9,540 nt of DNA from a virus (lineage: Duplodnaviria > Heunggongvirae > Uroviricota > Caudoviricetes): IMG/VR virus record IMGVR_UViG_2671180651_000017. The stretch is one strand, 5' to 3'. Below, piece by piece: positions 1 through 9,540 of this stretch. The stretch's first letter is position 1, and the number at the start of each line of letters is the position of its first letter. A model generated the notes under the pieces. That model ran no database searches and was not told the DNA's origin. It saw nothing but the letters and a program-made list of their open reading frames with translations. The translations under genes and the position numbers were made by a program.

Positions 1-11
1 ATAACTATCAT
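1..11. repeat. Terminal direct repeat ATAACTATCAT, left copy; candidate att core / element boundary
   Basis: Identical 11-mer at 1-11 and 9530-9540, exactly at the two window edges. The integrase gene and arm-like repeats lie just inside the right copy. Confidence 0.5.
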
Positions 12-80
12 TTATAACATTTCATTGATTAGTCTTTATTTTTCACTATGTTACAAATAACAACTCCGTCAAAAACAGCG

Positions 81-108
81 AAATTAACTACACCATTAAC
101 TACACCGT
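81..108. repeat. Sub-terminal 28-bp direct repeat AAATTAACTACACCATTAACTACACCGT, left copy (two tandem 12-mers TTRACTACACCR); candidate integrase arm-type site
   Basis: Matches 9378-9405 with one mismatch (A/G). Internally it is two tandem copies of TTAACTACACC. Confidence 0.6.
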
Positions 109-110
109 TT

Positions 111-150
111 CACGAACAATATCGAACAACCACGAACAAAGATCAACACG
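111..150. repeat. Cluster of ACGAACA-type short direct repeats, left end
   Basis: CACGAACAA, TCGAACAAC, CACGAACAAAG read directly after the 28-bp repeat. Confidence 0.45.
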
Positions 151-222
151 CTTTAACCGTTATCATTTTCCGGCCATCCGTTATGAAGCTGGTGGATGTT
201 CCCCGATATGGGTATCCCCACC

Positions 223-305
223 TACCTGGCTTTTTTTCCGGTTAAATGTTAATCAGGCTGGTGGCCTTTACATACCCTTGATCACGGTAATGATGATTCA
301 GGTGC
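223..305. repeat. 83-bp repeat block, copy 1
   Basis: TACCTGGCTTTTTTTCCGGTTAAATGTTAATCAGG...GATGATTCAGGTGC; 81/83 identical to 760-842. Preceded by a degenerate copy of the CCCGATATGG palindrome at 201-229. Confidence 0.8.
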
Positions 306-514
306 GTACCTTTTCCCCAGTGGGGTAAAAGCTCCAACCGTAACGATGTTCGTTGTGGTTGCCTTGATGGTCTGCGTGGTCATTATGACCATTCAGAATT
401 TGAAGGGTGATGTTTCCGATCTCCTCAAATTGAGGATTGTGGAAGAATCAATGGGTTAGTCTTACTTTCCCAACATCCCCCAATGGGGGTTTTCGAAATA
501 ATCAATGGGTTAGG

Positions 515-538
515 CCATAGTGCAATTTTGCACTATGG
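515..538. repeat. Perfect 24-bp palindrome CCATAGTGCAATTTTGCACTATGG
   Basis: CCATAGTGCAA-TT-TTGCACTATGG, exact dyad symmetry. Flanked by AATCAAYGGGTTAG direct repeats at 446-459, 500-513 and 652-665. Confidence 0.75.
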
Positions 539-759
539 AACAATTCCAACCAGTTATCGGCATCAGGCCCACCAGCCAACGCAATTTTGCGCTTTGCTTT
601 AATCTCAGTAAGTTACCGCGCCAATTTCCGCAGTCTGTGGAAATTGGGAAGAATCAACGGGTTAGGCTGGTTTCCCCGATGTTCGCCGCTGGCGAATTTC
701 GAAAATATCAACCAGTTACCGCCGTATCCCGATATGGTGATCCCCATATCGAGATTGGA

Positions 760-842
760 TACCTGGCTTTTTTTCCGGTTAAACGTTAATCAGGCTGGTG
801 GGCTTTACATACCCTTGATCACGGTAATGATGATTCAGGTGC
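760..842. repeat. 83-bp repeat block, copy 2
   Basis: Two mismatches to 223-305. Flanked by palindrome copies at 728-753 and 846-871. Confidence 0.8.
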
Positions 843-845
843 TTC

Positions 846-7000: not shown

Positions 7001-7028
7001 GGCGACCGCCACAGGTCGCCTTTGTTTT
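7001..7028 (+). terminator. Rho-independent terminator of the RHH gene: GGCGACC-GCCACA-GGTCGCC followed by TTTGTTTT
   Basis: Perfect 7-bp GC stem at 7001-7020 followed by a T-rich tract at 7021-7028. On the minus strand the hairpin is followed by A-rich sequence, so it works mainly in the plus direction. Confidence 0.65.
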
Positions 7029-7046
7029 ATGTGTCATATGTTCCCC

Positions 7047-7271
7047 CTACGCTGCCTTACCTGAATTAATACGATCCCGGCTTTTAACCCATTCCATAAC
7101 CTCGGAAAGCAGCCAACCTACTGAACGACCACCCAGATTACGGCGTGACGGGAAATTCCCTTTTTTCTCCAGTTCGTAGCGTGTAGTGCGGCACACTCCT
7201 GTTAACTTACGGCATTCATCCTCACGGATTACGCGATCTGATAGTGATTGAAATTGTGTATTTTGATTCAT
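7047..7271 (-). CDS. alpA: AlpA-family (prophage CP4-57-type) HTH regulator / excisionase-like protein
   Basis: 74 aa. ...CRKLTGVCRTTRYELEKKGNFPSRRNLGGRSVGWLLSEVMEWVKSR matches the AlpA/Vis signature (HTH followed by GxxSVGWxxSEVxEW). Confidence 0.8.
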   Translation of the reverse strand: MNQNTQFQSLSDRVIREDECRKLTGVCRTTRYELEKKGNFPSRRNLGGRSVGWLLSEVMEWVKSRDRINSGKAA

Positions 7272-7366
7272 AAAAAAACGTCCTCGAACGTTGCCGAACG
7301 AGGACGATTCTAGGCGGTAGTAAAACGCCGTTTGTGTGATATCACACTACCAGCACGTGATATCAC
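7272..7366 (-). promoter_or_regulatory. alpA leader: 8-bp stem hairpin plus U7 abutting the alpA start codon, and two GTGATATCAC dyad sites
   Basis: Hairpin CGTCCTCG-(12 nt)-CGAGGACG at 7279-7306, followed on the minus strand by TTTTTTT (7278-7272) and then ATG. The only SD (GAGGA) is in the stem. Palindromes GTGTGATATCACAC at 7334-7347 and GTGATATCAC at 7357-7366; TAGAAT -10-like hexamer on the minus strand around 7308-7313. Confidence 0.5.
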
Positions 7367-8136
7367 TTTTTACGTTTTTGTTGAGATTCACGCCCCAAAT
7401 ACTTTTGCCATGTCTGCCAATGTGTTTTTGGAAATTCTATCCCTCTGGATGCAGCTATAGAATCAATTAAATCTGCTATTTTAGGTAATGATTCCGTGTC
7501 CAGGTCTACATCACCCATTTCTGGAATAAGTTTAATTAAAGAGTAAATAACCTCATTCCTTTTTGACGATGCTTTTGGGCTATCTTCTGTTATCTTCGGG
7601 AAGTCTCCCGTATTTTTTATATTATCTAAATCACTAGCCATCACACACAAATAGTTAACATCAAATTCATAACCACCCTTACAAAAAACATACATGAGAT
7701 TATCATCACCATACTTATTCGTAAGATGAGAACATTTTATATATTGTCTCATGCTAAATTCGACATCAGCAAAAACATATGCCGGAGTATAATAAAACCC
7801 TGATAAGCTGCTAACATAATAACATTTGATAGAATTCCCTACAGGACCAATAATGGCACTATCTAAAAATTCAGTGTCACCAGTTAAACCAACTGTAAAA
7901 TTACTTCCAAAAACAGCAGATTCATCATTGAAAGGATATTTTATTAATTCTTCCTCATTACAACCATTGATAAAATGACATAATGAAAAATTGAATTTTT
8001 TAGCATCAATTTTTGGTATATATACAGAAATATTAAGAGCACCTATATATGCGTAATGATAAAGATCTTTTATTGCACAGCCTAACTTTTCTGCCGCTTC
8101 AGGTAACGGATAATAGAGTCTTTTAGGTAATTTCAT
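7363..8136 (-). CDS. Hypothetical AT-rich cargo protein, 257 aa, translationally coupled to int
   Basis: Start overlaps the int stop in ATGA (8133-8136). Markedly AT-rich compared with int, alpA and the primase. Cys/Tyr-rich N-terminal two-thirds and a charged C-terminal tail (...SKRNEVIYSLIKLIPEMGDVDLD...QQKRKK). No recognisable motif. Confidence 0.55.
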   Translation of the reverse strand: MKLPKRLYYPLPEAAEKLGCAIKDLYHYAYIGALNISVYIPKIDAKKFNFSLCHFINGCNEEELIKYPFNDESAVFGSNFTVGLTGDTEFLDSAIIGPVGNSIKCYYVSSLSGFYYTPAYVFADVEFSMRQYIKCSHLTNKYGDDNLMYVFCKGGYEFDVNYLCVMASDLDNIKNTGDFPKITEDSPKASSKRNEVIYSLIKLIPEMGDVDLDTESLPKIADLIDSIAASRGIEFPKTHWQTWQKYLGRESQQKRKK

Positions 8137-9356
8137 TTGGCCACCTTCAGCATAACAATATTTTCATGATTTCCAGCCAGCACATCGAGGCGCTCAACCC
8201 ATAGATTAAGAGCGTCACGTTTTGCATCAAGATAACGGGAGTGATTATAGACTCGTTGCATTCCTGGCAACTGGTGCGCGGTAAGCTGCTCCACAACATG
8301 CGGTTCCACGCCTAAATCGTTCAGCATCGTTGTAAACGTGTGCCGGATGTCGTGCAACGTCCAGGGGGCTTGATTAATGCGTCTGTGTGCCGTTCTTCCG
8401 TACTCTGATACGGATGATTGCCCTTTCAGTTCTCCGAGCAATAAGCCCGTGTGCCTGTTCTGCTCCACCAGCTTCATGACAAACGGCAAGATCGCTTCCG
8501 GTATTGGCCTGAATATTGCTACCTTCGTTTTGCTGTGTTCTTTCGGCACGGTCCAGAGCATTTCTTTAAAATCCCATTCCTGGACCTCAGAGCGTCTTAG
8601 CTCAGTGGTACGACATCCGAAGACAATCAGGAGGCGAATCAGGGCGCTGTAGTACGGTGGGTAAATTTTTTCATCAAGGGCGCGTAGTAATTCCCCAAGC
8701 TCCTTGTTTGTTAGTACGCGCTCGCTTATTTCTGCTTTTTTCCCAACATCACCGACAACCATATCATCAAGAACGTTGCTGATTGCGTATCGTCGTTTTC
8801 GGCAGTACTTAAGCGCCTGTTTGCATACCTGTAGCAAAAATCCGGCTGATACCGGATTACGCTTAGCAAGCTGGTCAAAACAGGCCAGCCAGTGGCGTAG
8901 CTCGCATTTTTCCAGTGGCATAGCTCCAATCTGGCTAATTATGTGTTTATTGATCCGGCTTTTCAGTGATTCGTAGTCAGTGCGCTTTTCCTTTGCGTAC
9001 GATTCAAGCCAGTAAGTGAGCGCTTCCTTAACCGTCACGGGGGCTAACGCGTCCTGTACAGCATGATTAAGTTCATAGCGCGGATTTTTCCCCTCAGCCA
9101 GCCATGCGCGACATTGCGACGCTTTTTCCCTGGCTGCTTTCAGGCTCAAATCTGGATAATTTCCCAGCCTCAGACGTTCAGGTGATATCTGCCTACCAGT
9201 TCCGGACCTGTAAGTGAAATACCAGGTTAACAGGCCATTGGTTGAATGCCTTACGCTAAGGTTGCCACCATCATTAAAAAAGGTGCTTTTTGTGGTTGGT
9301 GATCCGCTTAATTTTCGTAAAAGAGTGTCGCTAAGTCTATGAATTGCCCTGCTCAT
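8133..9356 (-). CDS. int: Tyrosine recombinase / integrase, P4-type (N-terminal arm-binding domain plus C-terminal catalytic domain)
   Basis: 407 aa. N-terminus LSDTLLRKLSG...TFFNDGGNLSVRHSTNGLLTWYFTYR is typical of P4-like integrases. C-terminal catalytic residues in HDIRHTFTTML and VYNHSRYLDAKRDALNLW (active-site Tyr). Adjacent to the arm-like repeats and the terminal direct repeat. Confidence 0.9.
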   Translation of the reverse strand: MSRAIHRLSDTLLRKLSGSPTTKSTFFNDGGNLSVRHSTNGLLTWYFTYRSGTGRQISPERLRLGNYPDLSLKAAREKASQCRAWLAEGKNPRYELNHAVQDALAPVTVKEALTYWLESYAKEKRTDYESLKSRINKHIISQIGAMPLEKCELRHWLACFDQLAKRNPVSAGFLLQVCKQALKYCRKRRYAISNVLDDMVVGDVGKKAEISERVLTNKELGELLRALDEKIYPPYYSALIRLLIVFGCRTTELRRSEVQEWDFKEMLWTVPKEHSKTKVAIFRPIPEAILPFVMKLVEQNRHTGLLLGELKGQSSVSEYGRTAHRRINQAPWTLHDIRHTFTTMLNDLGVEPHVVEQLTAHQLPGMQRVYNHSRYLDAKRDALNLWVERLDVLAGNHENIVMLKVAK

Positions 9357-9377
9357 GTTTCGTGTTTCCGGTCATCA

Positions 9378-9405
9378 AAATTAACTACACCATTGACTAC
9401 ACCGT
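9378..9405. repeat. Sub-terminal 28-bp direct repeat, right copy, immediately upstream of the int start codon
   Basis: AAATTAACTACACCATTGACTACACCGT; 27/28 identical to 81-108. Sits 22 bp from the int ATG at 9356. Confidence 0.6.
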
Positions 9406-9416
9406 GCATCGTACAA

Positions 9417-9519
9417 GGGCGAACTGTGACGAACAAGGGCGAACAAGAAAAACGAAATTATCCTTTATAATCATAGAAATAAATTAGATGCCCACACCAT
9501 GACGAACACCCACGAACAC
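9417..9519. repeat. Cluster of ACGAACA-type short direct repeats, right end
   Basis: GGGCGAAC, GACGAACAAGGGCGAACAAG, GACGAACACCCACGAACAC. Same motif family as 111-150, so both element ends share repeat organisation. Confidence 0.45.
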
Positions 9520-9529
9520 TAACTGATAA

Positions 9530-9540
9530 ATAACTATCAT
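9530..9540. repeat. Terminal direct repeat ATAACTATCAT, right copy; candidate att core
   Basis: Exact match to 1-11. Confidence 0.5.

Follow-up and report, generated by a model that had tools for sequence, protein, structure and literature searches.

The viral record IMGVR_UViG_2671180651_000017 comprises 9,540 nt, all of which was analysed here and is referred to as the window, and it raises the question of what kind of element is contained in this short sequence and which phage would serve as its helper. As a genomic object, it is a regular member of an already well-catalogued class, the phage-inducible chromosomal islands (PICIs). The best explanation for the observations as a whole, which we regard as probable, is that the window represents a complete integrated PICI with a life cycle that would run via a lambdoid helper phage employing an HNH-dependent cos packaging system.

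The element is precisely inserted between clpS and yljB/cspD of Escherichia coli with a duplicated attachment (att) core and ends at the window edges. The core sequence ATAACTATCAT is present exactly twice in the window, on the plus strand at 1-11 (attL, with AACTATC as the likely 7-bp overlap region within it) and at 9530-9540 (attR), and nowhere else; if one mismatch is tolerated, the expectation is 0.23 matches, and a count of two was reached in 3 of 200 shuffles. The element measures 9,529 bp, to which one duplicated 11-bp core is added. Matches of 100.0% identity were found in the chromosome of E. coli O157:H7 strain F8092B, where the island lies between clpS and the small gene yljB, adjoining cspD, and in six further strains among the matches listed, O103:H2 and O121 strains included. 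The window was present at a coverage of at least 80% in 38 of the 5426 complete E. coli genomes. A synthetic empty site, made by joining both host flanks over a single copy of the 11-mer, was found in 5058 of these genomes (coverage of at least 80%), and the matches listed were all 100% identical. Because the joined flanks with a single copy match this many genomes, the 11-mer is the duplicated att core. A preliminary description of the sequence had proposed a discrete integrated element bounded by 11-bp direct repeats, for which the empty site should hold a single copy, and both proposals agree with these data. It had also considered the opposite case, that of a non-duplicated 11-mer in an element continuing outward, but the host core genes clpS and yljB/cspD lie directly outside the two copies.

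Two inverted sites around a spacer are the usual core layout of a tyrosine-recombinase site. As read from the sequence, attB is GATAGAT-AACTATC-ATCTATC, namely, two inverted 7-bp sites flanking a 7-bp spacer, and the reconstructed attP is GATAAAT-AACTATC-ATTTATA, with ...CTAACTGATAAATAACTATCATTTATAACATTTC... as the predicted junction sequence. The core overlaps the stop codon of the 24-codon yljB at attR, and the end of yljB is regenerated there upon integration (host junctions at 5990-6011 and 15525-15550 of the extracted host locus). A tRNA scan of the window detected nothing, indicating that the att site is not a tRNA gene. The relatives of the element in IMG/VR are fragments of integrated copies.

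The gene content was defined from matches in Pfam, PHROGs and NCBIfam and from what RefSeq annotates on the identical sequence, all of which agree. The minus strand encodes a P4-type tyrosine integrase with an arm-binding N-terminal domain (int, 8133-9356; PF00589, PF13356 and phrog_1, E 4e-68), an AlpA-family regulator (alpA, 7047-7271; PF05930, E 3e-16, and phrog_2790), a 582-aa replication protein (pri, 3678-5426), a 162-aa small terminase subunit (terS, 1974-2462; PF03592 and phrog_641, E 1.5e-43) and a 307-aa homologue of HK97-family major capsid proteins (888-1811; PF05065, E 1.3e-6, above its cut-off, and phrog_617/10). The replication protein contains D5_N, an SF3 helicase (DUF5906) and a P4-alpha-like origin-binding C-terminal domain, carries the TIGR01613 signature, and matches the PDB entries 7OLA (E 4e-15) and 1KA8, the origin-binding domain of P4 alpha (E 1e-5); no catalytic primase domain was identified in its residues 1-140. 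Directly 3' of pri is an iteron-type origin (3439-3663), in which 11 GGTAGAGG-type repeats in both orientations surround an A+T-rich stretch; the whole window contains 13 such repeats versus 3.6 expected. Positioning of the origin 3' of the replication gene is the rule in PICIs (PMC6092414). The sole difference between the window and the F8092B chromosome, one G in a run, also falls within an iteron (window position 3571; GGGGTAGAGG versus GGGGGTAGAGG).

Portal, protease, TerL, HNH, tail, lysis, holin and head-tail connector genes had no match among the annotated ORFs of the window. According to the PICI definition and the five core components used by SatelliteFinder (PMC10085698, PMC6092414), the element is a Type A Gram-negative PICI, because int with a duplicated att site, alpA, a replicase with a 3' origin, a capsid homologue and terS are all present and tail, holin, portal and connector genes were not found. 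The int-alpA-pri-packaging layout and the lack of portal, protease, large terminase, tail and lysis genes had been noted in the preliminary description, and the profile check that it suggested assigned int, alpA, pri and terS each to its family (PF00589, PF05930, TIGR01613 and PF03592). The gene order that it gave, with the iteron origin, terS and the capsid homologue, also stands, except that four to five small ORFs, not three, separate the plus-strand gene from pri. Two other classifications were rejected: a capsid-forming PICI (cfPICI), because the element has no portal, prohead protease, head-tail connectors, HNH or TerL of its own (compare the true cfPICIs present at two E. coli loci), and a prophage fragment, on the basis of gene content and flanks. 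The P4-type integrase, the AlpA/Vis-like regulator, the P4-alpha origin-binding domain and the 'P4 family primase' signature TIGR01613 could also be taken to indicate a P4-like satellite dependent on a P2-type helper. This is very improbable, because no ORF matches Sid, Psu or Delta in Pfam or PHROGs, the TerS and the HK97 capsid homologue found here are not present in P4, the cos-like block described below matches lambdoid HNH-type phages and not P2, and P4 and PICIs are known to share, distantly, no proteins other than Int, AlpA and Pri (PMC6092414).

The packaging genes point to a particular group of helpers. In tblastn searches of 50,697 phage records, TerS and the capsid homologue both retrieved the same group, which includes phages converting for Shiga toxin (Stx), namely, Stx1a-, Stx2c- and some Stx2a-converting phages, and the PPompW prophages of enterohaemorrhagic E. 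coli (EHEC). The head module of these phages encodes HNH, TerS, TerL, a 645-aa protease-capsid fusion and a portal protein. Over its full length, the satellite TerS shares 46-51% identity with its counterparts in Stx1a/Stx2c/PPompW-type phages; the linker is divergent, and the helper-type TerS has nearly the same core (DPIKAMGRILIDNMDTDPKLALDAAFKLAQFTH) and C-terminus (NRFPIPKPP). Just upstream of terS, in a position equivalent to that in the phages, we identified a cos-like block on the minus strand (2532-2588), which comprises a run of eight G residues (2581-2588) and a conserved 30-mer (2532-2561) containing the cosN-like decamer CGCCCCCCGT (2536-2545). In a short-word comparison of the phage region with the window, this 30-mer was identical at 27 of 30 positions to the HNH-terS spacer of the Stx1a phage Stx1_14040, the satellite block being GGACAC-CGCCCCCCGT-CTCATTCGTAG with the same G run preceding it. 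Lys8385Vzw, a member of the same phage group, has been identified by PhageTerm as a cos phage whose 3' cohesive ends read CGCCCCCCCT (PMC7946995), and the sequence deposited in GenBank runs from CTCACGCAGAG... to ...GGACACCGCCCCCCCT, its limits thus lying exactly at the cohesive end. The stretch matched in the satellite spans this cohesive end. The predicted folding of the DNA of the cos region was no more stable than that of shuffled sequences (z -0.73).

An island of Serratia aquatilis contains the same trio of terS, a 54-aa ORF and the capsid homologue and keeps the cos block ...CCTCCCCCCCTCTCACGTGTAGAAAAAATT in the same place. Retention of the block in this island, even though its TerS and capsid homologue are only 37 and 45% identical to those of the E. 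coli island, respectively, argues that the block is functional. The heptamer AAGTTAC occurs nine times in the window versus 1.05 expected, a count reached in none of 200 shuffles. Two copies on the minus strand, situated between this block and the start codon of terS (2487-2505), represent a candidate cosB equivalent, and five copies within terS (2233-2303; three on the minus strand and two on the plus strand at 12-bp spacing) are candidate TerS-binding sites. On the minus strand, the AAGTTAC repeats (2230-2307) encode a KVT peptide repeat (VTFQVTKPKKVTKKVTEKVT) of the TerS linker, and it is probable from this arrangement that a DNA array for protein binding and a coding repeat coincide in the linker. 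In the helper-type phage, five GTTAAC palindromes are located between cosN and terS (seven in total versus 1.17 expected), and none is present between the satellite cos block and terS. A precedent is EcCICFT073, in which the cosN of the helper is retained but the cosB is the island's own (PMC6739421).

A full-length TerS encoded by the satellite itself characterizes pac-type Staphylococcus aureus pathogenicity islands (SaPIs) (PMC6739421), and the AAGTTAC repeats inside terS resemble pac sites, which are often located within terS. The element might, therefore, be a PICI packaged by a TerS-directed headful (pac) mechanism, as pac SaPIs are, with the cos-like block being a remnant of the phage region that donated terS. 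However, the phages whose TerS comes closest to that of the satellite carry an HNH gene and are of the cos type, their 3' cohesive ends being defined (PMC7946995), and the preservation of the block in non-coding DNA of Serratia while TerS and the capsid homologue diverged indicates selection rather than a remnant. We consider the headful alternative improbable and return to a cos-type helper. The strain of accession NZ_CP038355.1, which carries the island, contains five copies of the helper-type HNH-cos-terS module, and several other island carriers are also among the genomes listed with this module, which was found in 1252 of the 5426 genomes overall. The likely helpers are HK97-type, HNH-dependent cos lambdoid phages of the same strains, many of them Stx-converting, and we infer from the sequence similarities that the cos-like site is cleaved and that the satellite TerS redirects the packaging machinery of such phages.

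Two genes next to terS may provide additional means of interference. The 53-aa ORF (1801-1962, minus strand) matches positions 89-125 of phrog_641 (TerS) with an E-value of 3.5e-7, has an acidic tail, and contains the TerS-core motif DP..(L/M)..I(M/L).D.....L.AA..L..(F/Y).H; its orthologue in the Serratia PICI is 40% identical and occupies the same position beside terS. The protein resembles the TerS oligomerization core, and our hypothesis is that it serves as a decoy for the helper TerS, in analogy to Ppi. In Rpp-type cos PICIs such as EcCICFT073, a full TerS is lacking, and Rpp functions only when complexed with the TerS of the helper. In the 645-aa protease-capsid fusion of phage Stx1_14040, the capsid homologue matches only residues 291-625 (25% identity, E 1e-19), and it therefore lacks the protease and scaffold part. 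A PDB sequence search with this protein matched no chain, Ccm included, and a scan of genome contigs yielded a single relative, that of S. aquatilis. Ccm of SaPIbov5 takes pentamer positions and shrinks the capsid (PMC8569155), and the capsid homologue could by analogy act on capsid size in a Ccm-like manner.

Taken together, the following life cycle can be proposed. Induction of a lambdoid prophage that resides in the same cell and is of the HNH-TerS-TerL, protease-capsid-fusion type, to which many Stx1a, Stx2c and PPompW phages belong, would turn on alpA; in Gram-negative PICIs, AlpA serves as the activator induced by the helper (PMC6092414). Int would then excise the element, guided by the terminal TTRACTACACC and CGAACA repeats, and the replication protein would fire the GGTAGAGG iterons to yield concatemers. 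The satellite TerS is predicted to bind its own AAGTTAC repeats beside the helper-like cosN (CGCCCCCCGT), and its core and C-terminus would recruit the helper TerL and HNH, such that satellite DNA would be cut and packaged instead of phage DNA. More speculatively, the 53-aa TerS-core-like protein might disturb assembly of the helper TerS, and the scaffold-less capsid homologue might redirect capsid size. In this scheme, the element would be induced by, depend on and be transferred with its helper.

Several observations weigh against this scheme. The attP junction of the excised form had no match in public viral or metagenome contigs. The cosN-like decamer CGCCCCCCGT differs from the phage sequence CGCCCCCCCT at one position. 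In its N-terminal DNA-binding helix, the satellite TerS hardly differs from that of the helper, and the protein gives no obvious sign of a changed site specificity. The likeness of the 53-aa ORF to TerS consists of one profile match and the motif; BLASTP gave no alignment between them. For the capsid homologue, the AlphaFold model, built from a six-sequence alignment, was unusable (pLDDT 51), and in EcCICFT073, deletion of the PICI capsid gene left transfer and interference unaffected (PMC6092414), so that control of capsid size may not apply to the present island. Furthermore, the 9.53-kb element is about one-fifth of the 49-57 kb helper genome, and a 9.5-kb unit has no obvious fit to a small capsid derived from a helper of ∼50 kb; by analogy with EcCICFT073, 5-6-mers in full heads, as reported for that island, are as likely as small capsids.

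The missing excised form, the fusion of one small gene pair flagged as a pseudogene by PGAP, and the presence of the island in only 38 of the 5426 genomes could also indicate a cryptic satellite that is no longer mobilizable, or a defective-prophage remnant, which is inherited only vertically. However, all core ORFs, both att copies and all arm repeats are intact, the identical 9.5-kb copies in O157:H7, O103:H2 and O121 strains imply recent horizontal transfer, and candidate helpers reside in the same genomes. A cryptic element is, therefore, an unlikely explanation, slightly more so than headful packaging, and we retain that of a complete PICI mobilized by an HNH-cos helper.

The gene between int and alpA, hereafter gene X (7363-8136, minus strand), had been labelled as a cargo ORF in the preliminary description. 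This label does not hold, because members of the gene X family are not random cargo but are always placed in the order int-X-alpA and coupled to int. The start of gene X overlaps the int stop by 4 nt (ATGA), and this order, with a 407-aa integrase and the 4-nt overlap, was observed in all examples examined, namely, E. coli, a Klebsiella cfPICI, Providencia and a metagenome contig. The protein consists of an N-terminal winged helix-turn-helix (HTH) resembling those of excisionases and MerR, a β-rich middle part and a helical C-terminus. No match was found in Pfam, PHROGs, NCBIfam or PADLOC; its relatives form 19 clusters in a word search and amount to 390 representatives in a full HMMER search. 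Within the family, the N-terminus is conserved, the middle part is hypervariable and the C-terminus is nearly invariant. Because gene X is absent from a sister island that has a 90% identical int at the same att site, it is optional. Our best guess is that gene X encodes a DNA-binding accessory factor for recombination or a sensor.

Repeats that are probably recognized during recombination are present at both ends of the element. The sequence TTRACTACACC occurs in four copies, found only at 84-94, 96-106, 9381-9391 and 9393-9403, that is, in pairs 12 bp apart (0.25 copies expected; count reached in none of 200 shuffles). Of the 11 copies of CGAACA, seven are located on the plus strand in the outermost ∼150 bp at one or the other end, with 10-bp spacing and starting at 113/123/133, 9430/9440 and 9503/9513. 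The P' arm (84-138, plus strand) thus comprises two TTAACTACACC copies (84-106) and three CGAACA copies phased at 10 bp (113-138), and the P arm (9381-9518, plus strand) comprises two TTRACTACACC copies (9381-9403) and CGAACA pairs at 9430-9445 and 9503-9518. These counts and positions substantiate the earlier observation of a sub-terminal repeat and CGAACA-type repeats common to both ends. Because Int has an Arm-DNA-bind_3 domain, we read these repeats as candidate sites of the arm type, to which Int and a directionality factor would bind. A cfPICI adjoining phoQ in another O157:H7 strain also carries the TTRACTACACC pair, at its int-distal end.

Adjacent to the P' arm is a terminal module (150-887), which is non-coding in RefSeq and contains an 88-nt direct repeat (223-310 and 760-847), three copies of the palindrome CCCGATATGG..CCATATCGGG and short hairpin units. 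The preliminary description had recorded a repeat region here, which is real and can now be defined more precisely as a conserved module common to other PICIs and cfPICIs. Parts of it were detected in 1106 of the 5426 E. coli genomes, and in the loci examined it is located at the int-distal end of other PICIs/cfPICIs at different att sites (8764-9640 in locus L007, ∼2950-3260 in L011 and L012, and 3001-3324 in L013, NZ_CP028769.1). The blocks at 307-396 and 580-725 are identical to those of the cfPICI adjoining phoQ, and the neighbouring sequence differs. An Rfam search of both strands at a permissive threshold yielded only a chance SNORA5 match below threshold, indicating that the repeat region is not explained by a known RNA family. 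The module also contains an uncertain 37-codon ORF on the plus strand (346-459), antisense to the island genes, which would encode a strongly hydrophobic N-terminus (MFVVVALMVCVVIMTI..., MFVVVALMVCVVIMTIQNL...) and is preceded by a sigma-70-like site (267-294). Its length and the position of its stop are unchanged in two diverged PICIs; it matched no family and is given as 'hypothetical protein' in a few old annotations. Its sequence resembles that of a small membrane peptide or a type I toxin, and its conservation may instead stem from the overlapping hairpins. A 57-nt segment at 408-464, which covers the hairpin CTCCTCAAATTGAGGA, matches a portion of the roi/antirepressor genes from lambdoid phages, Stx1a phages among them, at 90-98% identity. 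Another PICI with the terminal module lies inside a prophage portal gene (2038-3324 in locus L013), which is the helper-embedded configuration known from earlier work (PMC10111431).

The remaining genes are small. The sole plus-strand gene (6733-6912), put down as an RHH regulator in the preliminary description, encodes a protein that NCBIfam assigns to the YlcI/YnfO family (NF041551, E 4e-17; phrog_949), and this arrangement is shared with other PICIs and cfPICIs. On the minus strand are an Icd-like ORF (6330-6533; NF033153), a 139-codon frame (5960-6379) representing an in-frame fusion of two small genes (phrog_3672 and phrog_1478), an annotated 87-aa ORF (5728-5991), a gene for a 99-aa DUF4222 protein (5423-5722; PF13973) and, beyond the origin, three small ORFs at 2592-2753 (coiled-coil-like), 2757-2951 and 3082-3327 (phrog_1231). 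The two parts of the fusion belong to separate PHROGs families, and RefSeq (PGAP) calls the first gene a pseudogene without its C-terminus. RgdR, of the ECs1581 family, is a regulator of motility and of the enterocyte effacement locus (LEE), and the family modulates the LEE type III secretion system. The DUF4222 protein has GLTASG at residues 7-12, CGD (not RGD) at 20-22, K27, K35 and R45, and matching residue states have been reported for ECs1581 and ECED1_1787 (PMC3378721). It probably belongs to the RgdR family, as judged from these residue states and its length compared with the published ones. PADLOC, Pfam and NCBIfam searches of gene X and all small ORFs gave no defence-system match, and promoter and terminator scans of the window were overall not above shuffled expectation.

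PICIs disseminate genes for virulence and defence and also interfere with the phages that serve as their helpers. A more far-reaching interpretation, which we offer tentatively and hold to be possible rather than probable, combines these features into an uncharacterized PICI hijack module directed against the HNH-dependent HK97-type cos terminase of EHEC lambdoid prophages, Stx1a and Stx2c phages included, and separately assigns gene X as the missing helper-sensing or anti-phage component. Such a module may consist of the near-helper cosN, a private AAGTTAC cosB reaching into terS, a full TerS with the helper core and TerL-binding end, and a 53-aa mimic that poisons the helper TerS rings; gene X, with its Xis-like HTH, hypervariable sensor-like domain, constant C-terminus and translational coupling to int, could fit the latter role. 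If this is true, the satellite would lower the yield of Stx phages and be co-transduced with them. The packaging signals point to long-tailed lambdoid prophages of Shiga-toxin-producing E. coli, including Stx1a- and Stx2c-converting phages, and, should the prediction hold, the island would affect the release and spread of Stx phages and provide a tractable Gram-negative PICI that combines a helper-type cos with its own TerS. The island additionally carries the DUF4222 regulator, probably of the RgdR family. The candidate helper, the packaging route and the helper-like cos site are new, while the class, the layout and the general strategies are known; in the literature searched, we found no description of this island or of a PICI using this cos type.

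Comparison with known satellites places the element among several types. It shares with cfPICIs such as EcCIEDL933 (bioRxiv 10.1101/2022.09.08.507074; PMC10085698) the int-X-alpA module, the arm repeats and the terminal non-coding module. However, cfPICIs encode a capsid protein together with protease, portal, connectors, HNH, TerS and TerL, whereas portal, protease, connector, HNH and TerL genes are lacking here. In pac SaPIs (PMC6739421), as is predicted here, an own TerS redirects the helper TerL, and a small neighbouring protein (Ppi) suggests how the 53-aa ORF could act on the helper TerS; they differ in that the likely helpers here are cos and not pac phages and that the 53-aa ORF has no detected similarity to Ppi. 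The cos SaPIs of the SaPIbov5 type (PMC5052747, PMC8569155) resemble the island in having HNH-dependent cos helpers, a helper-type cos and an HK97-fold capsid homologue, but they reside in a Gram-positive host, are subject to Stl-type regulation and have no TerS of their own, and the capsid-size function has been shown for Ccm, whereas it is only conjectured here.

With EcCICFT073-type PICIs (PMC6092414, PMC6739421), agreement extends over the left half, where both have a P4-type int, alpA, an opposite-strand YlcI/YnfO gene, Icd-like and DUF4222 (RgdR-type) genes and an origin 3' of the replication gene; those islands also have a capsid homologue, a helper-like cosN with a different cosB and a non-coding terminal module. 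The hijack module is that of another phage type: EcCICFT073-type islands encode Rpp, a capsid protein of the lambda E type and a decoration protein resembling gpD, and their replication protein is DUF927, whereas the present island carries D5_N/DUF5906, an HK97-family capsid homologue, a full TerS (51% identical to that of the helper) and the 53-aa ORF, and has gene X between int and alpA. Unlike an Rpp-type protein, the satellite protein aligns along the whole helper TerS, including the core and the C-terminus, in a comparison for which Rpp itself was not searched by sequence. The combination of a helper-like cosN with a satellite-specific cosB is common to both, but the cos block here is of another type, matching HNH-dependent phages with a 3' overhang (CGCCCCCCCT) and not lambda/phi80. 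[quoted passage not shown] An int of at least 90% identity is present in ∼366 genomes, in agreement with the ∼368 in which the site is split; 38 contain the present island. It appears, therefore, that a single int/att backbone carries interchangeable hijack modules matched to different types of helper.

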